A DNA stretch of 64,000 nt from a virus (IMGVR_UViG_3300024333_000003), one strand, 5' to 3'; numbered from the stretch's first letter, positions 38,932-55,078 are shown. A program made the numbers and translations. The notes: generated by a model from the sequence alone, not told the origin.

Positions 38932-38965
38932 AGAGAAATTTACGCATATTTAATATAAATGTCAA
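38932..38965 (-). promoter_or_regulatory. sigma-70-like promoter TTGACA-17-TAAATT with the ATG 5 nt downstream (leaderless)
   Basis: Minus strand reads TTGACAtttatattaaatatgcgTAAATTtctctATG. Confidence 0.55.
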
Positions 38966-38971
38966 TAGTAT

Positions 38972-38980
38972 GGTATAAGA
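38972..38980 (+). promoter_or_regulatory. GGTATAAGA promoter element, back-to-back with the divergent minus-strand promoter
   Basis: aTGGTATAAGAt upstream of gene 39007. Confidence 0.5.
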
Positions 38981-39006
38981 TATACAGTTTATAGAAAGGA
39001 GACTAT

Positions 39007-39279
39007 ATGTATTTATACGAATTAAAAGGTCCGGCCAGAATTCGCGTCCTAGAAGATGTCGTGACACCAATAGGCGCATTACCTATATATAAAGGAATGG
39101 TACTGAATTTTTATCATCTCGATGGCATGTATTCTGTTTGTGCTACATATGACGGAACAATCTATCATGCAAGCGCACATACAAAAGTTGAAGTTCTTCG
39201 GGGCGAACCATCGTCGCAAAAAAGATTAAAATTTAAATTAAAAGGAAAATATAATGACGCGAAAAGTAAGAGTTATTGA
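39007..39279 (+). CDS. hypothetical protein
   Basis: RBS aaaggag. Confidence 0.35.
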   Translation: MYLYELKGPARIRVLEDVVTPIGALPIYKGMVLNFYHLDGMYSVCATYDGTIYHASAHTKVEVLRGEPSSQKRLKFKLKGKYNDAKSKSY

Positions 39280-39313
39280 ACCACATTCATACTTATATAG
39301 AGTTTAGTTTAGC

Positions 39314-39553
39314 ATGAAACCAATATGTTTTAAAGGATGTAACTGCATTTACGCTAAAGACCAGCCTGAGTACCTGCCTCTGCATGTACATAAAAAATTA
39401 GATGGCGAAGTTATTAGCTGTTGGGAATTTAATTGGCGTGACCGCCTGAAAATATTGTTTGGTGCAAAGTTATATTGGCACCAGTTAACGTTTAATAAAC
39501 CATTACAACCCGTTAGAGCGGAATTAGAATTTAATATACATGATCAAACATAA
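39314..39553 (+). CDS. hypothetical protein
   Basis: ORF. Confidence 0.3.
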   Translation: MKPICFKGCNCIYAKDQPEYLPLHVHKKLDGEVISCWEFNWRDRLKILFGAKLYWHQLTFNKPLQPVRAELEFNIHDQT

Positions 39554-39773
39554 AAAACAATTCGGAGTATACCATTGGGATACATTCGATAATGAAACCA
39601 TTCTAATCACAAAGGATTGGCGCACTTTAGAAATGGCAGAATTTGATACGATACTAGAAGCCGACGCATTTGTACAAGAACAATATGCCGGGTGTATAAG
39701 TGATCAAGGCGCGGATCAGGTAGATATTGTAGATCTACAAGGAAACGTAGTTCAATCTTATAGGGTTTGCTAA
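39540..39773 (+). CDS. hypothetical protein
   Basis: ORF. Confidence 0.3.
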   Translation: MIKHKKQFGVYHWDTFDNETILITKDWRTLEMAEFDTILEADAFVQEQYAGCISDQGADQVDIVDLQGNVVQSYRVC

Positions 39774-39933
39774 CGAATGATCCGCAAAATTCGTAATAAG
39801 GCGAAAGCCTTTTGGAAACATGGAAAACATAAAAACCTGTACGAAATAAATATTTTGAATAATAGGAAAAAAATAATTAGAAGTACAGATATGGTTGATA
39901 GTATTAAAACGCTCTTTGCTAAAAAGGTGGTAA

Positions 39934-40251
39934 ATGATAAAGCTACGTGATATATTTGACGACAAGGTAGAATTGCCCAAGACTTATAAAGGAATAAACC
40001 TTTATAAAAGTGATTGGACACATAGTGCTTTGCGTTCTATTACCTGTTCAATAGTTGGAGCAGAGATCTTAGATTTCACTATTATACAAACTGAATATGG
40101 CTTCCGTGCTTGGTGTTATAAAACTTCGTATTATACAAATCCCGTAATTTCAACTAATTTTTATTCTCCAGACACATTGTTAGAAGAAGTGCTAGAGACG
40201 TTCATTCGTTGTTTCACAAAGATAAGTCAGGCGATAAATGATATTCATTAA
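39934..40251 (+). CDS. hypothetical protein
   Basis: ORF. Confidence 0.3.
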   Translation: MIKLRDIFDDKVELPKTYKGINLYKSDWTHSALRSITCSIVGAEILDFTIIQTEYGFRAWCYKTSYYTNPVISTNFYSPDTLLEEVLETFIRCFTKISQAINDIH

Positions 40252-40346
40252 AGAAGATGTCATGATTAGCGGGTATACTAGTATGCCACAAGTGATAAAA
40301 GTAATAAATTGGCATATGACCTTTAAACATTGGAAAAGGTGTATTT

Positions 40347-40829
40347 ATGAACTTATTATTTTTAGACATTGACGGTGTATTAATTAACGCACGTGGTTGT
40401 ATTGCGCACGATCTACATGATATTGGACAACCGAGTCGTGCAACAGATGTTAATTTTGATCCGACATCAGTAAAATTGCTTCAGCGGGTGTGTGAAATAT
40501 GCGACTTAAAAATATTCATACACAGTACGTGGTGGCATGACGGTATATACGACACTGAATATTTTGTTGCTGCGTTAGAGAAATATGGGTGGGCAAATGC
40601 TCCGGTTATTGGCGGTATCGATGTACGTGGGCGCAAAAATCGCGTCAATTATGGACTGCTAACATTTCAACCAGAAAGATGGATTATCTTGGATGATGCC
40701 TGTATGAAAGAAGAGTATGGTAGTAATATGCTTTGTATAAATCCAATGGAAGGCATAACATTTGCTGATTATGCATATATACTTACATACTTTGGCAAAG
40801 CCGATAAAATAGGTTGTTTCTTCTTTTAA
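40347..40829 (+). CDS. HAD-superfamily phosphatase-like protein
   Basis: Motif I LFLDIDGVL (DxDG). Motif III-like IILDD. Confidence 0.5.
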   Translation: MNLLFLDIDGVLINARGCIAHDLHDIGQPSRATDVNFDPTSVKLLQRVCEICDLKIFIHSTWWHDGIYDTEYFVAALEKYGWANAPVIGGIDVRGRKNRVNYGLLTFQPERWIILDDACMKEEYGSNMLCINPMEGITFADYAYILTYFGKADKIGCFFF

Positions 40830-40834
40830 TTTAT

Positions 40835-40843
40835 GGTATAAGA
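40835..40843 (+). promoter_or_regulatory. GGTATAAGA promoter element
   Basis: aTGGTATAAGAat with a possible -35 TTGTTT 17 nt upstream. Confidence 0.5.
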
Positions 40844-40905
40844 ATTTTACTTTTAAGATAGGGTTTTATTACTTATGTGTTCGACTTCCTATCTTAGTCG
40901 AACTG

Positions 40906-41541
40906 TTGTTAATATTTAAGGAGATTCACATGAGTCAACTTCCGTTAGTTCCCACACAATTGGTGGCCGAATTTCGGGCTTTCGCGCGCGTGCATGATAT
41001 GCGAAGGCAAGAACTGAAAAAAGCCTTGCTCACCAATGTGTACTCGAGTCTTGATAAGCGCCGCATTGTTGTGGTGTTGAAGGATCGAGTTGCACCTGGA
41101 TCAGATCGCCGTAAATTTTACCCAGAGGTAAAAGGAGCAACATTACATATCCAAGCAAATGAGTGCGGACCATTTTCCAAGGGTTCGGGATCATTTGCAC
41201 AGGTTGTAACAGATCTCGAAGGAAACAAATTAAGGCCAATCGTAGATTTCGCCAAAGTAAAAGGCGGATACGTAGCTCCCGGCGGACATCGTGCGATTTT
41301 TGATGCCCCAACATTAATGGTATTAAAGGCCTACCAAGACCAAAATGTGGTTACGATAAGCAAACTCACACCATATGTTGATGGTGAAGAAGCATGGATC
41401 CATGAAGATGCCATGTGCGTAGTGCCAAAAAATCAGGCATTGCCACCCGAATGGGAAAAATATACACCGGCTTTTCAGGCGTTATTGGTACGACTACATA
41501 AGGTCGCCACTATTGAATTACATTATGGTATCATAGGATAG
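40906..41541 (+). CDS. hypothetical protein
   Basis: RBS aaggag. Confidence 0.35.
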   Translation: MLIFKEIHMSQLPLVPTQLVAEFRAFARVHDMRRQELKKALLTNVYSSLDKRRIVVVLKDRVAPGSDRRKFYPEVKGATLHIQANECGPFSKGSGSFAQVVTDLEGNKLRPIVDFAKVKGGYVAPGGHRAIFDAPTLMVLKAYQDQNVVTISKLTPYVDGEEAWIHEDAMCVVPKNQALPPEWEKYTPAFQALLVRLHKVATIELHYGIIG

Positions 41542-41545
41542 TAAT

Positions 41546-41761
41546 ATGCTTACCCCGAAAGACTTAGAAGCGCTTAATAAAACACACAACGATTTTTTGG
41601 TGCTACCTGATCGAGTGGTTGGGTCGACCTATTTATGTTTGCCTGAAACTGATCAATGCGGCAACAGTAAGAAACCGTATCTATCTGCAGAAGAATCACG
41701 TAAACAACTTGCATTGCTGGAATCAGACCGAATTCGTGAATTATGTAGTAAACCGCGCTAG
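41546..41761 (+). CDS. hypothetical protein
   Basis: ORF. Confidence 0.3.
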   Translation: MLTPKDLEALNKTHNDFLVLPDRVVGSTYLCLPETDQCGNSKKPYLSAEESRKQLALLESDRIRELCSKPR

Positions 41762-41768
41762 AAACTAA

Positions 41769-41803
41769 AAGACCCGAGATGATGACCCGGGTCTTTTTTT
41801 TTA
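41769..41803 (+). terminator. rho-independent terminator
   Basis: aagacccg-N10-cgggtctt followed by a T9 run. Confidence 0.8.
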
Positions 41804-42310
41804 CTGTTTCAATCGTTTATGCGCTTTATCTGGTCCAAATATTTTTAGACCTAATCCGATATCTGGATACATCGGGGCTATAATAGGAGGTTGTGGTTGG
41901 TTACGATAAGGAGCGGCCATTTTTTGTATCTCATCATTTCTGGCACGTAATACCGTTAGAAATTGTGGTAAGGTACGTTGACCTTTTAAACTATTACAAG
42001 CCGGGCATATAATATTTAAATTATCAGTATTATGTATATTACCACGGTATCGTTTATAGTACGATCGAGGAACTTTGTGATCGATCGTCAGGGCATCCCA
42101 CGTCATTGGCATGCCGCATGTCTCGCAGGCTATAAAATTGCCTGGGAGTAATAATTGCTTGAGTCGATTGTAAAGCCATTCTTCAGTGATGTTACTTTTA
42201 CCGTTACGTTTCGAAATATCGTCACTGAATCTTTTTATTTTATTTGTTACGAGAGCCTTCAATGAAAATCGAAAGCCATTGTTACCATTAGTTTGTTTTT
42301 GTTTGGTCAT
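41801..42310 (-). CDS. HNH endonuclease
   Basis: CETCGMP...IDHKVPRS...NLNIICPACNSLKGQ. Confidence 0.65.
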   Translation of the reverse strand: MTKQKQTNGNNGFRFSLKALVTNKIKRFSDDISKRNGKSNITEEWLYNRLKQLLLPGNFIACETCGMPMTWDALTIDHKVPRSYYKRYRGNIHNTDNLNIICPACNSLKGQRTLPQFLTVLRARNDEIQKMAAPYRNQPQPPIIAPMYPDIGLGLKIFGPDKAHKRLKQ

Positions 42311-42851
42311 AATTTATCGACACCGGTGCGTCAGGCGGTCTATCTGTATTATCAGTAAATATTAATGGAGGGTACATGTATAATTTGTTTGTAGATGGTA
42401 ATGGATTAAACTGCGCTTGTGCGGCGTTGAATTCTAAGTATAATTCATTATAAAATATTATTTTTTCTATTACTACGATAGCCTCGGGTGCTTCAGCAGA
42501 TGTTTTTGGAAAACGAATATCAAAACAAGACGTTTGATCGTAAGCTTCGTAGTATTTTAGTATCTCTGCCGGAGATACTGCATAAATATCTTTATTTATT
42601 ACCCGTTGAAAAAGTTTTTCCGGAAACAGCTTTTCGATATAATTAGTGGCTTCATCTTTTGTAAGAAGTCTGGAAGAAAATTTATAAAATGTATTTCGAG
42701 CTATTATAACACGGCCCTTAAATAATGTATTTAATACCAATAAAACCTGACGGCCTTTTTCTCTTAAATCAGCGGTCAAAGAAATACCAGTATTTATACT
42801 ATATATATTACCACTTAATATCGGACTGCCAAGAGAAGGTGTACTCATCAT
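42288..42851 (-). CDS. hypothetical protein
   Basis: ORF. Confidence 0.3.
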   Translation of the reverse strand: MMSTPSLGSPILSGNIYSINTGISLTADLREKGRQVLLVLNTLFKGRVIIARNTFYKFSSRLLTKDEATNYIEKLFPEKLFQRVINKDIYAVSPAEILKYYEAYDQTSCFDIRFPKTSAEAPEAIVVIEKIIFYNELYLEFNAAQAQFNPLPSTNKLYMYPPLIFTDNTDRPPDAPVSINYDQTKTN

Positions 42852-43077
42852 CGATCTTTAAAGTGTCTGGATAGTTTGCGGTGTTGTATTGTTTTTGAAA
42901 AATACGCACGATCCGACTAGCAACCGCTCTGCTAAAAATTTTATCTGTAACGTGTCGTACATTGTTTTGAATACATAATATCTTACCAGCATCGTATTGC
43001 ATATTGACATATTGTGATATTTCCGACGCAATTCGAGTAGTGGCTAATAATTCTAAATCGTCTATAGTTACTGGCAT
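42808..43077 (-). CDS. hypothetical protein
   Basis: ORF. Confidence 0.3.
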   Translation of the reverse strand: MPVTIDDLELLATTRIASEISQYVNMQYDAGKILCIQNNVRHVTDKIFSRAVASRIVRIFQKQYNTANYPDTLKIDDEYTFSWQSDIKW

Positions 43078-43080
43078 TAT

Positions 43081-43089
43081 GGTATAAGA
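43081..43089 (+). promoter_or_regulatory. GGTATAAGA promoter element
   Basis: aTGGTATAAGAt. Confidence 0.5.
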
Positions 43090-43144
43090 TATTTGTTATG
43101 CATTTACATATATAATATACATAAAATTTAGGAGAAAAGCAAAT

Positions 43145-43531
43145 ATGAAGGCATTTAGTATACCAGCATTAAATGCAGCTAAGAGACTAGCTCAGCTGTA
43201 TCGAGATCTTACATGCGTACAAGTAGAGAACGCGTTTAAGACTTATGGTGTTAAAGATGTCGCTAGGGCGTTAACAGGGTTTGGTGATACCAATGAATGT
43301 ATAATTTGTGCTATTGCGGACACATGTATAGATTGCTTTTACATGCAAGTAGCTGAAGAACATTGCACAGCGGGTGTTAATGAGAAAACTTATCGTGCAA
43401 TCGCCAGCGCAGATACACCAGAAAAATTATACTTGGCCTATAAAGCAAGAATGAACTATATACAACAACTTATTGAAAGGTGCGAATATGAAATGGATGA
43501 TGATGTTAGTGGTAAGTATGCTATTATATAG
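43145..43531 (+). CDS. Cys-rich small protein (paralog of 44007-44396)
   Basis: CIICAIADTCIDC...TPEKLYLAYKARMNYIQQL. Confidence 0.35.
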   Translation: MKAFSIPALNAAKRLAQLYRDLTCVQVENAFKTYGVKDVARALTGFGDTNECIICAIADTCIDCFYMQVAEEHCTAGVNEKTYRAIASADTPEKLYLAYKARMNYIQQLIERCEYEMDDDVSGKYAII

Positions 43532-43802
43532 CTGCGGATTGTTAGAAGCTCCTGCTCCATCAAAGAATGATCCAAAAATCCAAATACAAAATTTACGAAT
43601 AACCATGGGGGCCGACCATGTCCTTGTGTCCGGTGAAGCAAAGAATCTCAAAGATACCGCAGTAAGTGTTCAAATAAATATAACACTTAATGGTATAAGC
43701 GGTGGTACAGAAGTATACTTTGGAATGTATACTATGCGCGAGTTCTCGATCAAGTACCCAGGTGTTACTGAAATAAGAAAGGTGGAAATAGAATGTTTAT
43801 AG
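43488..43802 (+). CDS. small lipoprotein (start trimmed to MKWMMM)
   Basis: Signal peptide with lipobox LLYSC. Confidence 0.4.
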   Translation: MKWMMMLVVSMLLYSCGLLEAPAPSKNDPKIQIQNLRITMGADHVLVSGEAKNLKDTAVSVQINITLNGISGGTEVYFGMYTMREFSIKYPGVTEIRKVEIECL

Positions 43803-44017
43803 TAGTAATGGATCGATGTCGCCGTCCAGCAGTTATTAACGTTGATAAAATTATATCGATTGAAATCCATGAAAACTCAGCAGACAAACATGTTGTATTT
43901 TATTTGGACAATAATAACCAACTGCACTGTCATGTTGCAGAAGACATTAATAAAATTATGGTATTATTAGAAAAAGAAACAATGCTGTTAAAAACGGAAG
44001 GTGTAAATGCATCCTAA
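43793..44017 (+). CDS. hypothetical protein
   Basis: ORF. Confidence 0.3.
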   Translation: MFIVVMDRCRRPAVINVDKIISIEIHENSADKHVVFYLDNNNQLHCHVAEDINKIMVLLEKETMLLKTEGVNAS

Positions 44018-44396
44018 AAATATAACGGCTGCAAGACAGTTAATGAAGTTTTATAAAACTGTGACATTAGAAACTATAAAAGATGTTTGGAACGCGCATT
44101 GTTATGAATGTTCCATAATTATAGATGGAGAGCTGATTGCTCGAAAATTAATTGGATTTAATAGATATCATTCATGTAGTTTATGTAAAGCCGTAAACAG
44201 CCAATGTGCCTTATGTATATATGCCCCCAAGAATGGACCAAAAAATGCATATATGAAAGCTTATTGTGGAAATTCTTCTACTTATAAGAACATCAAGTCT
44301 GCAAAAACACCTGAGGAGTTGTTAACGGCATTTCGAAAACGCGCTACATTTATACAAAGGAGATTAAATGCAATCGCTAAACGTGAAAGAGTTTAA
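44007..44396 (+). CDS. Cys-rich small protein (paralog of 43145-43531)
   Basis: CSLCKAVNSQCALC...TPEELLTAFRKRATFIQRRL. Confidence 0.35.
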   Translation: MHPKNITAARQLMKFYKTVTLETIKDVWNAHCYECSIIIDGELIARKLIGFNRYHSCSLCKAVNSQCALCIYAPKNGPKNAYMKAYCGNSSTYKNIKSAKTPEELLTAFRKRATFIQRRLNAIAKRERV

Positions 44397-44733
44397 CGAA
44401 AAAATTTATAATGTGTCCGGTGTTAATACTGGATTTTCAGGATTAGTGCCGGCGTTAATTTTGTTTTATATACCGTGTTCATTTATGAAATCTACTGTTG
44501 ATATGTTAGAAAATATTTCACAAAAATATACTGGTAAATTAAATTTATATGGAGTAGATGTTAGTGATGCTGGTTATGAATTAGCTGAGATGCTTGGTAT
44601 ACGTGCACTGCCGTCATTACTGATCATATCTATGACCGGAGAACCGATGTTTTTAATGGGACGAATGGAGACAAGCAAGATGTTAGAAAATATATTATCA
44701 AAATTGGGTATAGGGAGTAAAATAATTTTATGA
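44368..44733 (+). CDS. thioredoxin-fold protein with a degenerate, single-Cys active site
   Basis: LILFYIPCSFMKS...KLNLYGVDVSDAGYELAEMLGIRALPSLLI matches the Trx layout, but CxxC is reduced to CSFM. Confidence 0.4.
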   Translation: MQSLNVKEFNEKIYNVSGVNTGFSGLVPALILFYIPCSFMKSTVDMLENISQKYTGKLNLYGVDVSDAGYELAEMLGIRALPSLLIISMTGEPMFLMGRMETSKMLENILSKLGIGSKIIL

Positions 44734-45035
44734 ATGTATCACGTAAAAGTTGGAAGTATGCTATTTCAAAAAGTGTATTTCCGGACCTGGAGAAAACAGC
44801 CGTTACAAAATATCAATCGAGGCTGCTATTTGCGGGTGCGTTACTCATAATGACGGTAACAATTGTAGTTTATGGAGGCATGGCGGGATTAATTCTGTAT
44901 GTTGTTTTATTATGTCCTTGGCTAATTCGGATTATTATAATTAGTATAACCATTGTAATAGCAGTAATAATATATTTAGTAACTATTTATAAAAGGCTGT
45001 CAAACAAAGAAGAACCGATAATTTATAAGGATTAG
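44730..45035 (+). CDS. small membrane protein (2 TM)
   Basis: Hydrophobic helices. Confidence 0.3.
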   Translation: MNVSRKSWKYAISKSVFPDLEKTAVTKYQSRLLFAGALLIMTVTIVVYGGMAGLILYVVLLCPWLIRIIIISITIVIAVIIYLVTIYKRLSNKEEPIIYKD

Positions 45036-45041
45036 TAATAG

Positions 45042-45251
45042 ATGGCAATCATTAACAAAAAAGTTAAACCACAAAAGATAAAAGCTAAGGCCAGTTTGAA
45101 AATTGTGTGCGATATTGAATTAGAAGCTGGGATATCTATAGAGGAAGTTTGCAAAAACATTACAACAGGACTCGAGCACTTCTTAAGTGAAACAGGCTGT
45201 GCCTTGGTTCATGGAGAGGTAACATTAGATGACAATCATCGAAAATCATAA
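45042..45251 (+). CDS. hypothetical protein
   Basis: ORF. Confidence 0.3.
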   Translation: MAIINKKVKPQKIKAKASLKIVCDIELEAGISIEEVCKNITTGLEHFLSETGCALVHGEVTLDDNHRKS

Positions 45252-45615
45252 TCCTAATATACATGCTTATTATGGATACTGGCGCGGAGAAGATGACAAA
45301 GACAGCACCTATTTCATATATCGTTTTCCAATAATAGGGTATCGTGTGGAGGATTCCGAGGCAATTGTACTATTGGATGACGGACGTATAGGAAGTGCAG
45401 TTGGATCTATATACACTGGTGAATATCCCGGAAAAGAAGTCTTATTACGACAAGCAAGTTGCTTCGAGGAAGTAGACGAAAGTGAAATCAACTTAGTACT
45501 CGAGAATAGTTTAATATTATCAATGGTTATGGAGAAAAAAAATGTGCTTCTATCCGAAATCGCCGGCAAAACCGAAGAGGGCCTGGTGGCCAATAAAAGT
45601 TGTAAAAGCAATTAA
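45229..45615 (+). CDS. hypothetical protein
   Basis: ORF. Confidence 0.3.
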   Translation: MTIIENHNPNIHAYYGYWRGEDDKDSTYFIYRFPIIGYRVEDSEAIVLLDDGRIGSAVGSIYTGEYPGKEVLLRQASCFEEVDESEINLVLENSLILSMVMEKKNVLLSEIAGKTEEGLVANKSCKSN

Positions 45616-45994
45616 AATTGTGGATGGGATATGGTATACCGCGGCGCTGAAAGTCCAGATTAAGCCAGGCGTAACACAGCGCCCTGAAGTTAAAGTAAAT
45701 TATAAAGAAACTGTACATTATGCCGAAGAGGGTTGGATTCATAGTTACCTGTACGCCGCAGAAAAAGGGGACAAGTTTTGTTGTCATTTTAAAATTCGTA
45801 ATATTTTTTATCGTGATGTAATGGCAGTTATACCATTTGGCGCGTTTTATTTAAAAAATGATACAGAGGTAATATCATCCAAATTAAAAATTGGAAAAAA
45901 ATTAATACCGTGCGCCCATGAGCCGGAAAAACCAAAAAATCCCTTATATAGGCAAATAATTCAAAAATTAAAAAATTTTGGGAGAACCTGTTGA
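45542..45994 (+). CDS. hypothetical basic protein
   Basis: ORF. Confidence 0.3.
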   Translation: MCFYPKSPAKPKRAWWPIKVVKAIKIVDGIWYTAALKVQIKPGVTQRPEVKVNYKETVHYAEEGWIHSYLYAAEKGDKFCCHFKIRNIFYRDVMAVIPFGAFYLKNDTEVISSKLKIGKKLIPCAHEPEKPKNPLYRQIIQKLKNFGRTC

Positions 45995-46831: not shown

Positions 46832-47065
46832 TTATTTTCTTGAGGATGAGGGGATATATTTTTTTGATTTATTTTTGGCGAATGTAATGTGCTTTAGGGC
46901 TGAAGGAAGTAATGCGGTATAAGAACATAGAAGGATTAGATGTCCTCTTTCTAACCGACACCGTGCACGGTTTTTGTCACAAAGGGAAGGCGAGTAACTA
47001 TCGCCACCTTCTCTTTTACATAAATGAAAAAGGGCAGCCTCAGCCACCCTTTTCATAATTTTCAA
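46832..47065 (-). CDS. hypothetical small protein
   Basis: ORF. Confidence 0.25.
   Translation of the reverse strand: MKIMKRVAEAALFHLCKREGGDSYSPSLCDKNRARCRLERGHLILLCSYTALLPSALKHITFAKNKSKKYIPSSSRK
46916..46924 (+). promoter_or_regulatory. GGTATAAGA promoter element. It shares a 17-nt identity (ggtataagaacatagaa) with the copy at 57340 and is followed by a short palindrome plus T5.
   Basis: cGGTATAAGAACATAGAAgg. Downstream accgtgcacggt followed by ttttt at about 46961-46977. Confidence 0.4.
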
Positions 47066-47222
47066 TTTGTGAGTATATGTATTTTTGTCTATTTTTTAAT
47101 CGCCATGTGATTTTAAATTTATAACCACATCCTTCGCAAGTTGCTTCATCCGTTGCTACTGATTCAGTAGTACAGATAAGTTCCAACCTAAACTTCTTTT
47201 GATTGCATTTGGGACACCACAT
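47040..47222 (-). CDS. zinc-ribbon small protein
   Basis: CPKCN...CEGCG. Confidence 0.35.
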   Translation of the reverse strand: MWCPKCNQKKFRLELICTTESVATDEATCEGCGYKFKITWRLKNRQKYIYSQIENYEKGG

Positions 47223-47412
47223 CGTCTTTTGCTTCTATTAACGATTCCAATATTTCGTTGCAAAGCTCGTTGTATAACTCAAAAAAATCTTTTGTGGTTA
47301 CTACTCCGCCAGGCACGGTAAGCTGGATTAATTGCGCCGCTAACTCTGCAATTTGCATCTTCATATCAACTTCTTGATGTACAAGAGCTAGTTTTATATC
47401 ATTTAATTTCAT
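47188..47412 (-). CDS. hypothetical small protein
   Basis: Leaderless promoter immediately upstream. Confidence 0.35.
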   Translation of the reverse strand: MKLNDIKLALVHQEVDMKMQIAELAAQLIQLTVPGGVVTTKDFFELYNELCNEILESLIEAKDDVVSQMQSKEV

Positions 47413-47446
47413 GGTATAATATACGAAATTATTTAAACAAAGTCAA
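47413..47446 (-). promoter_or_regulatory. sigma-70-like promoter TTGACT-17-TATATT with the ATG 5 nt downstream (leaderless)
   Basis: Minus strand reads TTGACTttgtttaaataatttcgTATATTataccATG. Confidence 0.5.
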
Positions 47447-47451: not shown

Positions 47452-47460
47452 GGTATAAGA
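47452..47460 (+). promoter_or_regulatory. GGTATAAGA promoter element. An additional TGGTATAAT extended -10 lies at 47412-47420.
   Basis: gTGGTATAAGAg upstream of gene 47563. Confidence 0.45.
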
Positions 47461-47562
47461 GAATATGAGCAATTTACCCGGATTGTTCACAATAAATCAA
47501 TAACAATCGGCCTACCTGGGCCATTGCAACGGGTATGCATAAACAGGTAAAGGAGTAATAAT

Positions 47563-48168
47563 ATGTTACACGCTTTATTAAATAGTGGCATTATGCTTGC
47601 CCTAAAAGCGATCACAATCGCAGCTGCGCCATTATCCTGGATTAAAGATGGCGGCATTCACAAACTTGGTGCTTTTGTAAATTACAGTGCTAAATGGAGC
47701 AAGCCGCAATATCCAAAAGGTAATCCCGATGATGTCCTCAAGGTCATGTGCGATACACTGCCCGACAAAATCGTGCGGTTACACGTGCAACACGAAGGGA
47801 TGCTTCGATTGCTCGATGAGGGAGTAATAAGTAAACGCTGGCATGGGGGATATGATGAGTCAGACGCAGTGGTGTTAGCAAAAGTCACTAAGATATATGC
47901 TGACGATCATATAATTCATTTTGAAGCTGTTGCCGAAGGTGACGTTGAGAATTGCATTATCACTGACTCCGACGACAAGCCATATAACTTGCTCCTTACT
48001 TTCAACGAAATCGATGCTATCGAAATTCTTGACCCCTCAAAGGTCCTGCAGATCGAAAATGATGAGGATGAGAGTGAGGATGAGGACGAGAATAAATCAA
48101 TCGCCGATCAGGTAAAAGCTCTTTCAAGTAAAGAGCCAGCCGCATCAAAGGAAAATAAAGAGTCATAA
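47563..48168 (+). CDS. protein with an extremely acidic C-terminal tail (ENDEDESEDEDEN)
   Basis: RBS aaaggag. Confidence 0.4.
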   Translation: MLHALLNSGIMLALKAITIAAAPLSWIKDGGIHKLGAFVNYSAKWSKPQYPKGNPDDVLKVMCDTLPDKIVRLHVQHEGMLRLLDEGVISKRWHGGYDESDAVVLAKVTKIYADDHIIHFEAVAEGDVENCIITDSDDKPYNLLLTFNEIDAIEILDPSKVLQIENDEDESEDEDENKSIADQVKALSSKEPAASKENKES

Positions 48169-48197
48169 ACCAGAGAACACTGGCTGATATAAATGAG

Positions 48198-48228
48198 AAA
48201 AGCCTGATTAATCTCAGGCTTTTTCTTT
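48198..48228. terminator. rho-independent terminator (bidirectional)
   Basis: agcctga-ttaatc-tcaggct followed by TTTTCTTT. Confidence 0.75.
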
Positions 48229-49374
48229 ACGTTCTATAAGTGCAGTGCTACCTACAACGGTAGATGTAGCTATTGCTTTAATGCCTGCTGTAACTTTAGT
48301 ATCGCGACCAGTTACTTTTTTGTACAAATTGTGGGCAGTATTTGGACGATAATTGACTGTTAGTATCGCGGGATCTAAATTACCGCTTTGATCATTTATT
48401 TCTACTATCCGTGTTTTGCCTTTCACATCTTTAATGACATCAGCACCAAGCAAGAAACTGCGTTCTTTGAATACTTTTGGATTAGCTTTTACTATCCTTT
48501 GTAATGATCCCATAGTTGATGATATAAATTTTTTATCTGCATGAGATTTATTTATTGGTATTACCCCACCAGCCCAATCTGCGTTACGTCCGGTAATATT
48601 AACCGGACTAACTTTATTCTTATGTACAGAAAACTCAACTCTAAATTCGTGTCTTGGTTTACCTTTATCCATACCACTACTAATTCTTTCGTAATCGACC
48701 TCAGGCTGTATAACATATTTAGACTGATTCTTAAATAAGTGTCCGACTGCTTTACGATATTGTTTTGGGACTTCGCCTGTTAATTTATAATGCTCTTGAA
48801 TCTCACTAATAACTGATGACGGAAAATGTCCTTCTTGTCTGGATGCATAATCAACAGTAGGTTTAATATAATGCTTATTACGAATCTTACTGAATGCTTC
48901 CAAAAATTTTGCCTTTGATTTAGGCGAACCAACTGCTTCACTAAATGCACGACCTGGCACGATACTGTGTGTTGGATCTTTAAGTCTTGAAAACTCTATT
49001 TTGTTTTGTAATTTCTCACGAATAATATGTGATGCCGTATTAAGACCAATATCGGCTTTAGGTAAATTTGGTGTTTTGCCTAATACATCAATGTCTGCGT
49101 ACAACGCACCTTCAACTTTTTTTACATTCTTGAGCTTATCAACAGATGTAACATCAATGTCGCCGTAGAATATATTCTTTAATGTTCTACTTAGTGGATT
49201 TTTACCGCTCATTATTTTTCGCGTGCCTGCGTCACTAACCCAGGTAAGTTTACCCTTTGATGCTCGTTGTAATGCTGTAGGATTCCATGCTTTACGTGCT
49301 ACAGCATAAGTTGCAGCGCCTACGGCTGCGGCTAATCCGGGAATAATATATTTATTCTTTTCGTTTTTTGGCAT
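48214..49374 (-). CDS. hypothetical tail-module protein with N-terminal Gly-zipper
   Basis: IIPGLAAAVGAATYAV. Confidence 0.3.
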   Translation of the reverse strand: MPKNEKNKYIIPGLAAAVGAATYAVARKAWNPTALQRASKGKLTWVSDAGTRKIMSGKNPLSRTLKNIFYGDIDVTSVDKLKNVKKVEGALYADIDVLGKTPNLPKADIGLNTASHIIREKLQNKIEFSRLKDPTHSIVPGRAFSEAVGSPKSKAKFLEAFSKIRNKHYIKPTVDYASRQEGHFPSSVISEIQEHYKLTGEVPKQYRKAVGHLFKNQSKYVIQPEVDYERISSGMDKGKPRHEFRVEFSVHKNKVSPVNITGRNADWAGGVIPINKSHADKKFISSTMGSLQRIVKANPKVFKERSFLLGADVIKDVKGKTRIVEINDQSGNLDPAILTVNYRPNTAHNLYKKVTGRDTKVTAGIKAIATSTVVGSTALIERKEKA

Positions 49375-50107
49375 GATCTAATGCAAACCCTAATGCACCT
49401 AATGCTACAGCAGGAGCTACGACATACTTTAATAATGATTTATTTGATGCTGGTAGATGTGTTTCTACTTTCTTTAGTTCTGCTACTAATGTAAATTTTT
49501 TTGGATTGGTGAAATCTTTTGGCATAGCAATTGATTTATTGACTTTGAATAATCGCTGTGGTAAATGTTTGGCTGGAGCATTACTGCAAAAATCTCCTTC
49601 ACACTTTATATTTTTTAATCCAAATGAGTTCGCTAGATACGCTTTTATAGCAGCGGGAGAGCTGTATGAAGACTTAGTATAACGTTTATTTACACCCTTT
49701 AAGAAATTTTTGCGCTCAGTATCAGTAATGTGAGGACGCCATGCTTCATGTGCTTCTTCAGTGAGTGCTTGTCGTAAATCTTTTTTGGTTGTATCTCCGC
49801 CCGGCTGTTGATGACGTAATAAAAATTCGGAATATTGCCCCTTGCCAGTATATACACCAATATGATAAACAGGTTTATTGCGATTTAGAAATGTATCAAA
49901 ACCTTTTTCCCATGGACCCTTGTCGTACGCCCCAGTTAGTAACACGTCGCCAGGTTTCAACTTGGATATAAATTTTTCTTTTTCCAGTGCTGAAATATGT
50001 ACTGGCTTACTGACCTTCGGCAGACTAGAACGTCCATATGTATAAGCTATCCCACCACCGGTGCCTAATGCTACACCAGTTAGTGTGTTATTATTTTCCT
50101 TTGCCAA
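49352..50107 (-). CDS. hypothetical tail-module protein with N-terminal Gly-zipper
   Basis: LTGVALGTGGGIAYTYG. Confidence 0.3.
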   Translation of the reverse strand: MAKENNNTLTGVALGTGGGIAYTYGRSSLPKVSKPVHISALEKEKFISKLKPGDVLLTGAYDKGPWEKGFDTFLNRNKPVYHIGVYTGKGQYSEFLLRHQQPGGDTTKKDLRQALTEEAHEAWRPHITDTERKNFLKGVNKRYTKSSYSSPAAIKAYLANSFGLKNIKCEGDFCSNAPAKHLPQRLFKVNKSIAMPKDFTNPKKFTLVAELKKVETHLPASNKSLLKYVVAPAVALGALGFALDHAKKRKE

Positions 50108-50339
50108 ATAAAACCTTCATTGTTTGTTTACCACGCTTGGTTGTTGCAATAAATGCACCCGTTGCACCTCCCATGATTGCACCACCTAATACTCCGGCAA
50201 TTGGGGTGTCATTGAATGTGTTTGCTCCCAAAATTCCACCAGTTAATGCACCAATCGCACCCCCAGCTAAATTGGGATTTTTTGCTAAGTGTTTCGCAAC
50301 TGGTGTAAATAATTCACCTATACTAGATTGTTTTACCAC
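50091..50339 (-). CDS. small Gly-zipper membrane protein
   Basis: GGAIGALTGGILGAN...GGAIMGGATGAFIA. Confidence 0.35.
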   Translation of the reverse strand: MVKQSSIGELFTPVAKHLAKNPNLAGGAIGALTGGILGANTFNDTPIAGVLGGAIMGGATGAFIATTKRGKQTMKVLFGKGK

Positions 50340-50342
50340 AAC

Positions 50343-50750
50343 TTATCCTTTCACTACTCTAAACCCTTCTACGCCGGGAATAGCTGAATCTACTGGTTTC
50401 TGTTGTTTCTTTAAATTAAGTAAGCGTTTATCGTGTGCCTGTGCATTTTGCGCATGCTGAATTCGATTCATACGCAATTCTTTTTCAGACAAAGCTATAT
50501 TAGCCATGGAAGGCACGGTTTCACGTACTTTATTAACTAAGGGTGTTATTGCTTTATTAAATTTAGCACCAAATGCCACGCCTGCTCCAGTACCAAATGC
50601 GGTGCCCACAATAGTACCACGTGCATTACCATCATCGATAACATTGCCTCCAACGGCCCCCACTGCACCGCCAGCAATTCCCGTAGTTGTGCGAGGAAAT
50701 TGTCTTACTTTGTTAATTGCTTTTGCAAATAAGTTAGCTATTTCGTTCAT
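50343..50750 (-). CDS. Gly-zipper protein
   Basis: GIAGGAVGAVGG...GTAFGTGAGVAFGA. Confidence 0.35.
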   Translation of the reverse strand: MNEIANLFAKAINKVRQFPRTTTGIAGGAVGAVGGNVIDDGNARGTIVGTAFGTGAGVAFGAKFNKAITPLVNKVRETVPSMANIALSEKELRMNRIQHAQNAQAHDKRLLNLKKQQKPVDSAIPGVEGFRVVKG

Positions 50751-52477
50751 TTTAATCCCTTTACTCCACGTAATATTTCAATTATATCTAACAAACCAAA
50801 CATTACTTTGCGCAATGCGCCTTCATCTACTAACTGTACACCAATTCTTGCTTTCATAATCATTTCTGCTAACGCTGCCACAGCATTTTCAAATAACGGG
50901 ATTGAGTCTATAAATACCGCAATTGTATCTTTGTTAACAAAATTTAGTGCTAACACTTTATCAACAGTAGGTACATCAGGTATAGCGCTTGCTTCTTTAA
51001 CATAATTTCGAGATACTCTTTGGATATCACTTAATTCTTTTGCAACAATACTGTCATACTCAAATGCTATCTTTTCAATGGACGAAACTGGTTCAGTAAA
51101 TTCGTATTCAAACTCTAAGGCTTCACCATCCCGTAACGATCCAAGTTTTTTTACATCATCCTCTAGTGCACCTTTCTGAATTAACGTCCAAATGCCATCA
51201 TGTAGGTTGACTGGTGTTGCACCATCTATTGATAATTCAGTAGCTGTTTTAATAACACGATGTTTTATATTTTTTACTTTCTTTTCTGTGCATTGTTCAC
51301 AACCTAACTTAACAAATGCATTTTCTGGCACCCATGTCCACCCATCAACATTTGCAGTCTTTTCAATACCACTATACACCGCAAACTTGGCTCCATTATT
51401 TGCATACACATACTGTATATCACGCATAGCAAGTAATCGATCTACGGTTAATACATCGCTATATGTACCATCTCCGTATTTAAACATACCGGATTTATGT
51501 AATTCAGGCGGCTGTCCAGGAGGTTCCATTGATATTTTTACCGGTGCATCTACATACATGTGATTAGGTATACGAACATAGTCACCATTTTCAAGTAACA
51601 CAATTGACGTGTCACTATTTTTAATTGGTAGTATTACTACAGGCTTAGATTGCTGTTTAGCTTCTAATGTTTTGGCTTTCGCACATTTAATAAGCTGTCC
51701 TTTAAATGCGGCAACATCTGCTTCGGTCATGTTATCAAATGTAATTGCAGTATCGGCAACCTTACTATTCCCGAATGTACCATGATATGAAAACTCACCA
51801 TTTTTATAAATGTACCAAATATCACGGTCGAGTAAATCATTTACACGTGCTGCAGTTTTCTCGAGAACCACATCTTCGTGCGATTCACTGGCAATCTTAA
51901 CTACACACGACGCTGTGCCGTTCATACGATAACCTTCAGTTACTTGCTCGTTTTCAATTTCTGTCAAAATCTTTTCACGTTCGGCCTTTGTTGTTAAAGG
52001 CAATACTTTATCTAATAATGATTCGTCTGCACCAGCAGTTTTGTAGGTTTCGATTGGTGCCTCTCTCATATATCCCAATCCGCCTGAACTAAATAACAAT
52101 GTAGTGATATCACCTGTTTCTCGTTTCACCGTTTTCAGGAACGGAGTTTTACCTGCAATATATGTATTGATTGTATAATCAGTTAATGGTATAACTTGTC
52201 CATTAATTAAGCAAACGTCAAATGGATACAATTCACGATTTTTAATAACGATGGGCACTGCGACACCTCCACCATTTTCAACAATGATTGCACCAATTGC
52301 ATATCCTTTTTGTTCATCTTTTTGTTTGAATTCTACTCTGACCGGATAATTAATAAAATAAGGAAATGCCACATAGAACTGTTCCATTACATCTCTAGTC
52401 CATTCAGTAGGATTTTCACTTACTCGTAGGTATGCAGTCTTTTCAAATTCTAATGGTTTAATAAATAGATCTGTCAT
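50747..52477 (-). CDS. large tail/baseplate structural protein
   Basis: 576-aa ORF. Confidence 0.3.
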   Translation of the reverse strand: MTDLFIKPLEFEKTAYLRVSENPTEWTRDVMEQFYVAFPYFINYPVRVEFKQKDEQKGYAIGAIIVENGGGVAVPIVIKNRELYPFDVCLINGQVIPLTDYTINTYIAGKTPFLKTVKRETGDITTLLFSSGGLGYMREAPIETYKTAGADESLLDKVLPLTTKAEREKILTEIENEQVTEGYRMNGTASCVVKIASESHEDVVLEKTAARVNDLLDRDIWYIYKNGEFSYHGTFGNSKVADTAITFDNMTEADVAAFKGQLIKCAKAKTLEAKQQSKPVVILPIKNSDTSIVLLENGDYVRIPNHMYVDAPVKISMEPPGQPPELHKSGMFKYGDGTYSDVLTVDRLLAMRDIQYVYANNGAKFAVYSGIEKTANVDGWTWVPENAFVKLGCEQCTEKKVKNIKHRVIKTATELSIDGATPVNLHDGIWTLIQKGALEDDVKKLGSLRDGEALEFEYEFTEPVSSIEKIAFEYDSIVAKELSDIQRVSRNYVKEASAIPDVPTVDKVLALNFVNKDTIAVFIDSIPLFENAVAALAEMIMKARIGVQLVDEGALRKVMFGLLDIIEILRGVKGLK

Positions 52478-53214
52478 TTTGTTTTCTTTATATAAGGTAT
52501 AATTTTTAATTCGTTGAGCGCCTCTTTGGAACGATTAACAAAATAATTTACATAATTTAGTTTATCTTGTAATTGTGCTGGAGCCAATGCTGTCGTTCTT
52601 ATTGCGTTAGCTCCTTCAGATGCAGGCGCTTTTTCTGCGGTCATCTTTTGTATTAGATTAGACCCCTGTGATATATTACGTTTCAATAATTGTTTTGTTA
52701 ATGGTACATTGCCGTTTAAAATCAATTCGTTTGTTGTGGTAATTCGTTTATCCAATGCCTGTCGTAATGCTTTAGGACTAACGGCAGCCATTTTATTATA
52801 TGTGCTTTCAGCAATACGTGCCTTTTTACCAGCAGACCATTCTGGGTGTTCGCGTTTTAATGCACGATATATTTCTTTTACCTTTTCAGGACGATCCTGG
52901 CTGGTGAATGACGGCATGTCTTTTGCGGTCTTTTGAAATCCTAGTTCTTGCATTTTTTTACCTTCACGATATCTATCCCATTCATCTGCAAAATATTTAC
53001 GATTTACCGTATTGGCAATTAATGCAGATCCTGCGCCAATACCCGCACCTATTAATGCGTCTTTCCATCCTACATTGCGCCCACGTGCTAACTGATATAA
53101 TATAGCCATGGGTATACCGTAAGCTGCACCTAAACTAACTGCGGGCAGTAGTGGTGTTTGTGGATCACTTATTTTTTCGTTGAAGTATGTCTTTGGTAAT
53201 TCCATAGAGTGCAA
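52474..53214 (-). CDS. hypothetical protein with Gly-zipper
   Basis: LIGAGIGAGSALIAN. Confidence 0.3.
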   Translation of the reverse strand: MHSMELPKTYFNEKISDPQTPLLPAVSLGAAYGIPMAILYQLARGRNVGWKDALIGAGIGAGSALIANTVNRKYFADEWDRYREGKKMQELGFQKTAKDMPSFTSQDRPEKVKEIYRALKREHPEWSAGKKARIAESTYNKMAAVSPKALRQALDKRITTTNELILNGNVPLTKQLLKRNISQGSNLIQKMTAEKAPASEGANAIRTTALAPAQLQDKLNYVNYFVNRSKEALNELKIIPYIKKTK

Positions 53215-53482
53215 ATGATAGAGCTGAAGCAGGTGCTACTTTAAGCATTTTTACACCGGCTCCAGAAAAAAATCCTTTGGGGCCACCTATGTAATACATT
53301 TCTTTTATCTGCGCCGGAATAGTTTTTGACATAAGTTTATGTCCTAAAAATGTACCAGCGCGACGTGAATCTGCGATTGCATCAATAGGGGCGACAACTA
53401 AATTAGCCAAGGCACCTGCGGTACCACCAGCTATTAAGTCATCTGTTCTTTTCTTTTCAAATCCGAGTTTATTTAGATTCAT
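53165..53482 (-). CDS. small Gly-rich membrane protein, leaderless
   Basis: Promoter places the ATG 5 nt after the -10. Confidence 0.35.
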   Translation of the reverse strand: MNLNKLGFEKKRTDDLIAGGTAGALANLVVAPIDAIADSRRAGTFLGHKLMSKTIPAQIKEMYYIGGPKGFFSGAGVKMLKVAPASALSFALYGITKDILQRKNK

Positions 53483-53516
53483 ACGTAATATTACTCAAAT
53501 AATCTGAGTATGTCAA
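53483..53516 (-). promoter_or_regulatory. sigma-70-like promoter TTGACA-17-TAATAT with the ATG 5 nt downstream (leaderless)
   Basis: Minus strand reads ctaTTGACAtactcagattatttgagTAATATtacgtATG. Confidence 0.55.
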
Positions 53517-53521
53517 TAGTA

Positions 53522-53773
53522 TTAACTGATTGTTCCTTTTATTGTAATAGGTGCCGCATTTTGTTGTGCTGACGGACTACCTGCTACCATGATTTCACCA
53601 ATATTAGCTGTTACTGACACGACGGTGTTGGCTGTTAAGTAATCAATAATAGCTTTTGCAATGGCTTCAAACATTTCATCATTAGTATAATTATCACGTA
53701 ATTTTATTTTTTGTTTTTTCTTGTCGACCTCAGCTTTTATCTTAACCACAAGATCGCTCGCACTTAATGACAT
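53522..53773 (-). CDS. hypothetical small protein
   Basis: ORF. Confidence 0.3.
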   Translation of the reverse strand: MSLSASDLVVKIKAEVDKKKQKIKLRDNYTNDEMFEAIAKAIIDYLTANTVVSVTANIGEIMVAGSPSAQQNAAPITIKGTIS

Positions 53774-55044
53774 TATTCTGCCCTCGTTGTATTTGTAAAT
53801 TGATTTGAACTGCTGTCTGAGCCTGGTGAATATATACTCATATCTAATGGAAAAGGTGTACTTGTAGGTGATGCCGGGCCTTGTGCTTGATGTTGATGCT
53901 TAGCGTACTCGTCCTTGACCCAACTTTCTGTCACTAATCGCTGTTCATTACCGGATCCACCAATCTTAATTGTACCGTCCGCTTTAATCGTAACATCACC
54001 GCTAGCGGTAACAGTAATTACACATTTACCATTATCTAATATAATACCACCATCACTGGCAATATCTAATTTAACTTTATCATCGGCTAGACGTAGTATT
54101 AATGCACTTGAACCCGTGCCCATTGCTAATGAATATTTCTTACTTGCACCTTCGCCACTACCAATAATACTAAATTGATTGTCCACTGATGAATCCAGTA
54201 TTAGATCAACTTTAGCTTTAGCATCGTTGAAGGTCAGTGTGCTTATCAATGACTTCTCATCAAACTTCCACTGAACATTATTTTTTGTGTCAGTGTTTTT
54301 TACAGAATATAATAATGCACCATCGGTTGTCCATGTAATATCTGATGTAATTTTTAAATCTGTCTCAGCAAACGACAAAGCAATAATATTTTTGTCGCCT
54401 ATTGTACCAGTTAATGAATATATGGAAGATCCAGTTGAATCATAATTTTCTTTTATCCAAAAGTTAACAGTGCCTTTAGCTTCATCTGATTTACCAATAT
54501 CGATTATAAAATTATCTGGCTTAGTATCTGTTTTGTGTGTAGGTAATGCGGTAAGATCTTGATCCTTGGCATAATAGAATCGGTATATACCAGGTCTGAT
54601 ACTATTACTGCCTGTCCAATATTTAAAGGTTACATTTTTGAATTGTCCAAATAACGATTCAGCTCGTGGCTCTAATACTAATTGTGAATATTCAGATGTA
54701 TATAAACTTAATGATCCGTCACCGAATGCTTTAACATGTGTATTATCTGCACTAGCTAATACAAATCCACCAGGTTCAGATCTAGTAATTTCTCGCGCAA
54801 AACTACCTGGAACAAACCCCAGGATAAAAACCATATATGCAGAATCTTTAAAACATACAGCATATAAATTATCGCATTTACTAGCACCAGCACGAAATCC
54901 AGCACCTCGTCCTGTTGGCATCATAGACAGTACTGTTGCTACTTCAGCTAATGACGCTTCGCTCCTTTCAACTGCATTCATACGCTTGACCTTGAATCGA
55001 TAATCGTCCAGCTGTTCTAATACCTTAGCATAAAAAGTTTCCAT
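53773..55044 (-). CDS. tail/baseplate structural protein
   Basis: 423 aa, beta-rich. First gene of the operon. Confidence 0.3.
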   Translation of the reverse strand: METFYAKVLEQLDDYRFKVKRMNAVERSEASLAEVATVLSMMPTGRGAGFRAGASKCDNLYAVCFKDSAYMVFILGFVPGSFAREITRSEPGGFVLASADNTHVKAFGDGSLSLYTSEYSQLVLEPRAESLFGQFKNVTFKYWTGSNSIRPGIYRFYYAKDQDLTALPTHKTDTKPDNFIIDIGKSDEAKGTVNFWIKENYDSTGSSIYSLTGTIGDKNIIALSFAETDLKITSDITWTTDGALLYSVKNTDTKNNVQWKFDEKSLISTLTFNDAKAKVDLILDSSVDNQFSIIGSGEGASKKYSLAMGTGSSALILRLADDKVKLDIASDGGIILDNGKCVITVTASGDVTIKADGTIKIGGSGNEQRLVTESWVKDEYAKHQHQAQGPASPTSTPFPLDMSIYSPGSDSSSNQFTNTTRAE

Positions 55045-55078
55045 ACAAGAATATACGAAAGTATATTCAAAAATGCAA
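55045..55078 (-). promoter_or_regulatory. sigma-70-like promoter TTGCAT-17-TATATT with the ATG 5 nt downstream (leaderless)
   Basis: Minus strand reads TTGCATttttgaatatactttcgTATATTcttgtATG. Confidence 0.5.

Follow-up and report, generated by a model that had tools for sequence, protein, structure and literature searches.

Four genes on the minus strand of an uncultivated phage genome are likely to be transcribed from genuine sigma-70-type promoters that would give rise to leaderless mRNAs. The genes were located in a 64,000-nucleotide stretch of viral DNA (IMGVR_UViG_3300024333_000003), which is called the window here and from whose first letter all positions are counted. Upstream of each gene, a -35 hexamer, a 17-nt spacer and a -10 hexamer were followed by a gap of only 5 nt and an ATG. 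The observations behind this reading were the sequence geometry, its statistical excess, the positions of the gene starts and the conservation of the sites across relatives. Moreover, three of the four sites stood back to back with a second short element, GGTATAAGA, which appears to be a promoter element serving the opposite strand.

Geometry of the four promoters

The first site occupied positions 38932..38965 of the minus strand and consisted of TTGACA (38965-38960), a 17-nt spacer, TAAATT (38942-38937) and the gap tctct before the ATG at 38931. At the second site (47413..47446, minus strand), TTGACT (47446-47441) was separated by 17 nt from TATATT, which was followed by the gap atacc and the ATG at 47412. 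The third site (53483..53516, minus strand) had TTGACA (53516-53511), a 17-nt spacer, TAATAT and the gap tacgt ahead of the ATG at 53482; this promoter occupied the whole 39-nt gap behind the upstream gene. The fourth site (55045..55078, minus strand) had TTGCAT (55078-55073), again a 17-nt spacer, TATATT and the gap cttgt before the ATG at 55044. The arrangement described in the first-pass annotation (a -35 box, 17 nt, TAnAnT, exactly 5 nt and an ATG) was thus read back at all four sites. The -35 hexamers agreed with TTGACA at 6/6, 5/6 and 6/6 positions at sites 1 to 3 and at 3/6 positions at site 4, where the agreement was restricted to TTG.

In every case, the ATG was the first ATG, GTG or TTG past an in-frame stop codon, and the corresponding open reading frames (ORFs) were 154, 74, 105 and 423 amino acids (aa) long. 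At site 3, an in-frame TGA was present 15 nt upstream of the ATG and a Pfam domain began at residue 13. There was no sequence resembling a Shine-Dalgarno (SD) site ahead of any of the four ATGs. Within the site-1 ORF, an out-of-frame ATG with GGAG was present at 16 nt; it was discarded as an alternative start, since the ORF following it had 2 codons only.

The strict pattern TTGACW-N17-TAWWWT-N5-ATG had three matches in the window compared with 0.02 expected, and none of 100 shuffled sequences reached three. Site 4 was outside this pattern because only the TTG of its -35 agreed. When both strands were scanned without constraint, no further ORF had the same geometry together with a good -35. 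On the other hand, a loose sigma-70 scan of the region showed no enrichment (86 found, 83.9 expected in shuffled sequence), and neither did TAnnnT alone at the -11 offset across the 105 ORFs. Therefore, the signal resided in the complete geometry rather than in its parts. A possible weak fifth site was seen at 10521 (minus strand) in front of the DNA ligase gene (TTGCGC-17-TATTAT-5-ATG); it was set aside because of its poor -35. This site was inside an operon.

Sigma-70 holoenzymes start transcription about 6-8 nt after the -10 hexamer, favouring a purine preceded by a pyrimidine, and 70S ribosomes are able to initiate on a 5'-terminal AUG. All four sites had the first T of the -10 at position -11; among the 15 cases from the window and its orthologues, 14 had it at -11 or -12. 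In all 15 cases the start codon was ATG, and the base at -1 was a pyrimidine (compared with 58 % of other genes), in line with the pyrimidine(-1)/purine(+1) that bacterial RNA polymerase prefers. Since the -10 lay 5 nt (5-6 nt in the relatives) before a pyrimidine-preceded ATG, RNA polymerase would initiate on the A of this ATG or at most one nucleotide away from it. The resulting mRNA would have neither a 5' untranslated region (UTR) nor an SD sequence, so its translation would proceed by direct recognition of the 5'-terminal AUG. When seven such 5' ends were folded, the AUG was predicted to be unpaired in six of them. Leaderless transcripts had already been proposed in the first-pass annotation, and the proposal stood in the sense that the geometry, which would set the start at or next to the A of the ATG, was also kept in the relatives. 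From the sequence we infer the transcription start point, leaderless translation and the sigma factor reading the sites.

Conservation of the sites in distant relatives

At the orthologous positions of sites 1, 3 and 4, the geometry was conserved and the spacers had diverged, and the protein N-termini could be aligned starting at their first Met. The relatives were distant metagenomic phages whose orthologous proteins were 18-50 % identical to those of the window. They were collected by three routes: through the terminase (loci L005-L011), through a profile of the 154-aa protein (P0003-P0007; loci L012-L017) and through an exhaustive HMMER search with the 105-aa protein (loci L018-L023). Word-indexed protein searches with the 423- and 105-aa proteins gave back only the query, a result limited by the method, and the homologues of the 423-aa protein were identified by BLAST within the loci surrounding the 105-aa homologues. 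IMG/VR scans with the 423-, 371- and 576-aa proteins and with the profiles A3 and A6 gave no match, and the same was true for genome-contig scans with the terminase profile and the exact L014 promoter string.

The orthologues of the site-1 gene (L014/L009, L012 and L010) had 24-32 % protein identity and the N-termini MKWS, MYWS or MNWS. They were preceded by TTGACA-17-TA(A/T)A(A/C)T-5-ATG, in which neither the spacers nor the gaps were related in sequence. The gene preceding the L010 orthologue was co-directional; thus, the site-1 promoter was kept even without a divergent partner.

For site 3, TTGACW-17-TAnAAT was found directly upstream of all six fetched homologues. The gap was 5 nt in L018, L019 and L023, and also in L022 when counted to an in-frame ATG that precedes the gene caller's start by 12 nt. 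For site 4, the orthologue in L022 (30 % identity, E = 4e-46) was preceded by tcttataccTTGCAT-17-TATATT-6-ATG, which preserved the unusual TTGCAT fused to tcttatacc. The corresponding sequences were tcttataccTTGTAA-17-TATAAT-6-ATG in L019 and TATAAT-6-ATG with a poor -35 in L021, and the four N-termini aligned to within two residues. It followed that the fixed 5-nt gap of the first-pass annotation was correct for the window and too strict for the relatives, where the gap was 6 nt in three site-4 orthologues and 12 nt in one site-3 orthologue. These comparisons also had a practical side, as gene callers had misplaced gene starts of L022 upstream or downstream of the leaderless ATG.

There was no comparative support for site 2 because no orthologue of its 74-aa ORF was found. 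The homologues of the zinc-ribbon gene, the second gene of the site-2 unit, were the first genes behind their own promoter of the same class in L014 and L010, and the L014 copy also had an SD. Moreover, L007 had tcttatacc and TTGACT-17-TATAAT back to back before a non-homologous gene with a leader of about 95 nt and GGAGG. Hence, the promoter architecture predates the leaderless wiring of any single gene.

Leadered members of the same promoter class

A strict-promoter compilation covering 169 kb (the window plus relatives) gave 25 hits, 21 of which were followed by an ORF. The consensus of the 25 sites was TTGAC(a/t)tt......aaatTT..G-TAtAaT; the spacer was 17 nt in all of them and positions 1, 2 and 6 of the -10 (T, A and T) were invariant. 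Additional conserved features were a G directly before the -10 (16/25), a T-rich patch and, in several sites, CTA before the -35. The distance from the -10 to the ORF was bimodal. It was 5 nt in ten cases and 6 nt in one, none of these 11 having an SD, and the second mode was at 12-38 nt (n = 9), with an AGGAG-type SD in eight of the nine. The site-4 orthologues added three further 6-nt cases. It has previously been reported that leaderless genes can be predicted by a TANNNT whose first T precedes the start codon by about 12 nt (PMC3160421). In Lactococcus cremoris, about 13 % of the mRNAs were leaderless and leader lengths were bimodal, with none of 4-14 nt (PMC10986495); the bimodal spacing found here matched these measured lengths.

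The leadered members in the window included three promoters within the head and packaging module, all of them on the minus strand with leaders of 13-32 nt and AGGAG. The promoter at 31590..31618 (TTGACT-17-TATAAT) had a 22-nt leader and preceded the gene 30620..31567. It was a positive control for the comparison, since its hexamers were kept and its spacer had diverged in L005 and L006. The promoter at 28261..28289 (TTGACA-17-TAATAT) had a 32-nt leader, and the one at 25048..25076 (TTGACA-17-TATATT), near the major head gene, had a 13-nt leader. Another promoter of the class (8318..8346, minus strand, TTGACA-17-TAATAT) had a long leader, and the gene at 8172 behind it had GGAG. Within the window, intergenic strict TTGACW-17-TAnnnT sites were present on the minus strand only. 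Since the same class also drove mRNAs with a leader and AGGAG, the leaderless status belonged to particular genes and not to the class as a whole.

Two further claims had to be revised in this light. The four sites had been assigned to structural operons, and this assignment found no support: neither the four products nor their neighbours had a structural annotation in Pfam, PHROG or NCBIfam, and the promoters of the structural module carried leaders. Strong AGGAG sites had been described as a property of plus-strand genes. On both strands, this was true of genes that come first behind a promoter, which bore AAGGAG, and it did not hold as a property of the strand. About half of the 105 ORFs, on both strands, had no recognisable SD; they were mostly internal to operons, with A/T-rich upstream sequences or overlapping stop and start codons. 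Thus, the AGGAG contrast was positional rather than strand-bound.

The GGTATAAGA element and the divergent pairs

There were 13 copies of GGTATAAGA in the window compared with 0.59 expected, and all 13 were on the plus strand. The element had a -10-like core without a conserved -35 region and with a G in place of the invariant T at -7. In the six clearest cases, a plus-strand ATG with an SD followed it at a distance of 19-55 nt. The exact 9-mer was kept in the relatives, and in every relative examined it was only on the strand opposite to the terminase. Judging from this distribution, GGTATAAGA would be a phage-specific promoter element serving the plus strand, and its G at -7 suggests recognition by a dedicated factor.

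The late promoter of phage T4, TATAAATA, is read by gp55. Similar to this promoter, GGTATAAGA was short, nearly invariant, -10-like, devoid of a -35 and repeated in one orientation. However, its sequence was different, and it preceded small, SLT-domain (lysozyme-like) and other genes rather than virion genes. A literature search for GGTATAAGA as a phage motif gave primer matches only.

Three plus-strand copies formed pairs with the promoters described above. The copy at 38972..38980 was 6 nt from the -35 of site 1 and upstream of the gene at 39007 (SD AAGGAG). The copy at 47452..47460 was 5 nt from the -35 of site 2 and upstream of the gene at 47563, and the copy at 55079..55087 directly abutted the -35 of site 4 (0 nt), upstream of the gene at 55131. 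The compact back-to-back placement described in the first-pass annotation was therefore confirmed, and it recurred in the relatives at distances of 0-16 nt; the second member of each pair is a putative promoter. The putative start points of each pair were about 50-55 bp apart, making simultaneous occupancy by two polymerases unlikely, and the two polymerases would then exclude each other. It was a reasonable inference from these overlapping footprints that the pairs may couple or antagonise early and late transcription.

A 12-codon ORF (MSNLPGLFTINQ) was noticed at 47465-47503 on the plus strand, 5 nt behind the TATAAG core of the GGTATAAGA copy at 47452 and within the leader of about 100 nt of the gene at 47563. 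It may be a chance occurrence or a leader peptide.

The remaining copies, all on the plus strand, were found in different contexts. The copy at 23096..23104 was located within the minus-strand structural block, upstream of a small gene (23157..23351), and the copy at 40835..40843 was between plus-strand genes. The copy at 43081..43089 preceded the gene at 43145, and only 3 nt separated the end of its complement from the ATG of a minus-strand gene (43077). The SLT-domain gene at 57368 was preceded by a copy at 57340..57348, and the gene at 61953 by another one (61919..61927). Several copies had no clear ORF behind them. These were 46916..46924, pointing toward the 3' end of the site-2 unit, 58439..58447, 61822..61830, with a hairpin and a T-run about 60-90 nt downstream, and the tandem pair 63215..63223 and 63284..63292, which was followed by a long G-rich stretch. 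They may produce small or antisense RNAs; Rfam, searched at gathering thresholds, found nothing.

We also observed that two minus-strand first genes, at 43077 and 23086, began 3 and 9 nt behind TCTTATACC, the complement of GGTATAAGA, and had no SD. The motif TCTTATACCAT(A/T)AATG recurred in front of the HNH gene in L014 (8533) and L012 (3687).

Alternative explanations

The window encoded its own sigma factor, a SigA/RpoD/RpoS-like protein of 266 aa (561..1361, plus strand) with regions 2, 3 and 4 and without region 1.1. It is quite possible, although short of probable, that this protein rather than the primary sigma factor of the host reads the sites, which would then form a middle or late class expressed after the GGTATAAGA-driven plus-strand genes, the sigma factor gene among them. 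Such an explanation is compatible with leaderless mRNAs and concerns only the reader of the sites. The phage protein is a candidate because the -35-reading motif TRERIRQ was retained in its region 4.2. Moreover, the residues facing the upstream edge of the -10 and the extended -10 differed from those of SigA (WWIRQSILF compared with WWIRQAITR near the -12 contact, and PANRIG compared with PVHMVE, the H/E pair, in region 3.0), and the promoter class had the extra conserved features described above. The phage sigma factor could thus read the -35/-10 class, perhaps with a preference for the G before the -10. The class was also confined to the strand of the terminase, head and tail genes, and the sigma factor and DNA polymerase genes were on the opposite, GGTATAAGA-served strand, with no copy of GGTATAAGA upstream of these two genes within the window. 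On the other hand, a nearly consensus TTGACA-17-TATAAT should suit the host primary sigma factor too, and the extra conserved positions could merely mirror the promoter preferences of the host. RpoD-like sigma factors about 33-37 % identical to this one were present in other large phages, for example Microcystis phage MaAM05 and Acinetobacter phage MD-2021a.

The gene content of the two strands would fit a cascade in which the plus-strand genes (sigma factor, DNA polymerase and small ORFs) would come first and the minus-strand packaging, head and tail genes later. A more elaborate model can be imagined for a deep jumbo-phage clade with a strand-segregated system of two promoter classes. In it, the phage sigma factor would act on TTGACA-17-TAnAnT, selected operon-leading genes (including the single-repeat SLC25 homologue described below) would start at the AUG with SD-independent, 70S-type initiation during a remodelling of host initiation, and the overlap with GGTATAAGA would be an exclusive switch. 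We regard this complete model as speculative and unlikely to hold in all its parts.

Several points weigh against leaderless transcripts from the four sites. The start point was derived from sequence, and the 5-nt gap puts the A one position nearer to the -10 than the modal start of the Escherichia coli polymerase, which favours position 7-8 after the -10. Transcription might plausibly begin at the G of the ATG as well, in which case the transcript would have no AUG. The predicted 5' ends were not significantly less structured than shuffled sequences. The site-2 ORF had no homologue and the -35 of site 4 was weak (3/6). Among the site-3 orthologues, L020 had a 12-nt gap, and L021 could be read either with a 6-nt gap to an in-frame ATG or with a 27-nt leader containing the SD-like AGAGG. 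Finally, site 3 was inside the operon beginning at site 4, and many internal genes had no SD, so SD-independent translation from longer read-through transcripts was evidently possible.

The polymerase distance, the abundance of SD-less ORFs, the internal position of site 3 and the exceptions in L020 and L021 would also suit a second explanation, namely that the promoters are real and their mRNAs not functionally leaderless. In this case, transcription would start a few nucleotides off the A, for instance at the G of the ATG or farther upstream, and the protein would be made mainly from SD-independent read-through transcripts. We find this improbable for three reasons. Sites 1, 2 and 4 faced a divergent plus-strand gene and therefore had no same-strand source of read-through directly upstream. 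All other first genes behind promoters had AGGAG, with the exception of those at 43077 and 23086. Finally, the distance of 5-6 nt to a pyrimidine-preceded ATG was kept in 14 of 15 orthologous cases at 18-50 % identity, which would have no easy explanation if the start point and the ATG were independent of each other.

A chance likeness to the promoter consensus in AT-rich intergenic DNA, to which the unenriched loose scan and lone TAnnnT might point, was effectively refuted and is extremely improbable, since the three strict matches stood against 0.02 expected, every match was on one strand and at an ORF start, and the hexamers and their spacing were conserved in at least ten divergent contigs while the spacers varied.

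Comparison with known systems

Leaderless mRNAs from sigma-70 promoters are well known from lambda cI, from Actinobacteria and their phages and from Lactococcus. Leaderless expression is therefore a known mechanism, met here in a new phage group. A close parallel was lambda PRM/cI, where a sigma-70 promoter without an SD behind it starts transcription at the A of the AUG and stands back to back with a divergent promoter (PR) belonging to the opposite programme. However, the lambda case concerns a single repressor gene of a temperate phage with a weak, activator-dependent promoter and a 6-nt gap. Here, four sites were found within 16 kb of a large, lytic-looking myophage, three of their -35 hexamers were near-consensus, their products were not evidently repressors and the partner was a -35-less, phage-specific 9-mer. 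The lambda cI transcript has been cited as a leaderless mRNA (PMC9031893).

The sites also resembled the TA-led genes of bacteria, low-GC Firmicutes such as Lactococcus among them, which have TANNNT about 11-12 nt before the start codon, no SD and bimodal leaders (PMC3160421, PMC10986495) of either about 0 nt or more than about 12-14 nt. In those systems, host genes were concerned and the starts were mapped by experiment, whereas here the genes were those of a phage and the evidence was comparative. Moreover, the -35 was much nearer to the consensus here than in Lactococcus, where it is often absent.

With phiKZ (PMC8244752) and AR9 (PMC5312081), the phage shared a very large genome and short phage-specific promoter motifs. 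These two use multisubunit phage RNA polymerases, unlike the phage described here, which had a sigma factor and sigma-70-type promoters. No leaderless transcript was reported for phiKZ (PMC8244752), and the 5' UTRs of AR9 were 26-491 nt long (PMC5312081), although the AR9 paper calls phage transcripts "often leaderless" (PMC5312081). If confirmed, the sites would clearly exemplify leaderless expression maintained in evolution within a lineage of jumbo phages; phiKZ and AR9, the two jumbo phages with mapped transcriptomes considered here, show no leaderless transcripts. The two motifs, TTGACA-17-TAnAnT and GGTATAAGA, can be used to annotate transcription units and to correct start codons in the clade. 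The comparative support was unusually clean; the practical value was moderate because the mechanism is a textbook one, and the interest lies chiefly in the annotation of the clade.

Genes behind the four sites

The site-1 gene (38467..38931, minus strand, 154 aa) opened a conserved module upstream of the terminase, and its transcription unit headed the block running on to the terminase gene. The product was basic and all-helical, with two helix-turn-helix (HTH)-like segments. Its AlphaFold2 (AF2) model had a predicted local distance difference test (pLDDT) score of 68.5 and no significant Foldseek match; HTH, sigma and paired-domain proteins were at the top of the list with E > 0.4.

The site-2 ORF (47188..47412, minus strand, 74 aa), starting 5 nt behind its -10, encoded an acidic, helical protein without family matches. 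It was followed by the zinc-ribbon gene (47040..47222, minus strand, 60 aa), and a terminator-like hairpin at 47027..47054 (minus strand) closed this transcription unit of about 385 nt.

The site-4 gene (53773..55044, minus strand, 423 aa) encoded a beta-rich protein. Its AF2 model was unusable (pLDDT 34), and profile searches of the Protein Data Bank (PDB) and Pfam with it were empty. A possible likeness of its C-terminal HxH and beta-rich segment to tail-spike proteins was given no weight. The site-3 gene (53165..53482, minus strand, 105 aa) belonged to the same minus-strand unit, which began at sites 4 and 3 and was closed by a bidirectional terminator-like hairpin at 48197..48224.

A single-repeat homologue of the SLC25 carriers

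The 105-aa product of the site-3 gene was a homologue of the mitochondrial carrier repeat (SLC25, PF00153), matching PF00153 in Pfam with E = 9.3e-14 and 51 bits against a cut-off of 22. Together with six homologues it formed a single-repeat family of 105-144 aa on phage contigs (L018 164-508, L019 4001-4372, L020 508-879, L021 4001-4324, L022 3989-4435 and L023 36-422). The family profile matched the bovine ADP/ATP carrier 1okc with E = 7.6e-23 and aligned to each of its three repeats. Canonical carriers have a tripartite architecture of three repeats of about 100 aa with six helices; the phage protein had one repeat only. Therefore, it is a homologue of the carrier repeat and not a canonical carrier, and it presumably acts as a homotrimer. 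No counterpart was found in 50,697 sequenced phages, and a 2026 preprint described SLC25 as having no known prokaryotic homologues. The protein could represent a form from before the triplication, or else a repeat that was captured. A single-repeat relative of the carriers bears on the origin of the SLC25 family, and in novelty and worth it may outweigh the promoter finding.

The phage and its other genes

The window belongs to the genome of a novel, uncultivated myophage with a size of about 215 kb or more, since its genes recurred identically on contigs of up to 215,168 bp and its head protein was only distantly matched. The major head protein shared only 26-33 % identity with its counterparts in Salmonella phage Arash, some Vibrio phages and Bacillus phage G. 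At the nucleotide level, DNA similarity searches in near and distant modes against 50,697 phage records gave no match for the 64-kb window, and a tRNA scan found none. In addition to the genes already described, the window encoded a tail sheath protein, a family-A DNA polymerase in two pieces, a ligase and SLT lysozymes, the sigma factor being of the sigma-70 family. The low G+C content, the AAGGAG ribosome sites and the closeness of the sigma factor to Firmicute SigA structures weakly hinted at a host perhaps among the Bacillota.

Two genes were interrupted. The terminase gene (31993..34653, minus strand, 886 aa) contained a LAGLIDADG-bearing insert of about 350 aa at residues ~163-511. The insert was not present in the 527-aa orthologues of L005 and L006 and was located at another position in L014; it is probably a mobile intein. 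The family-A DNA polymerase was encoded by two plus-strand ORFs, 1362..2378 and 2631..3431. The first one contained the exonuclease and polymerase positions 29-128, and the second one polymerase positions 127-380. The 252-nt gap between them had no Rfam intron match and contained a 46-codon ORF, and the interruption could reflect either a split gene or an intervening element.

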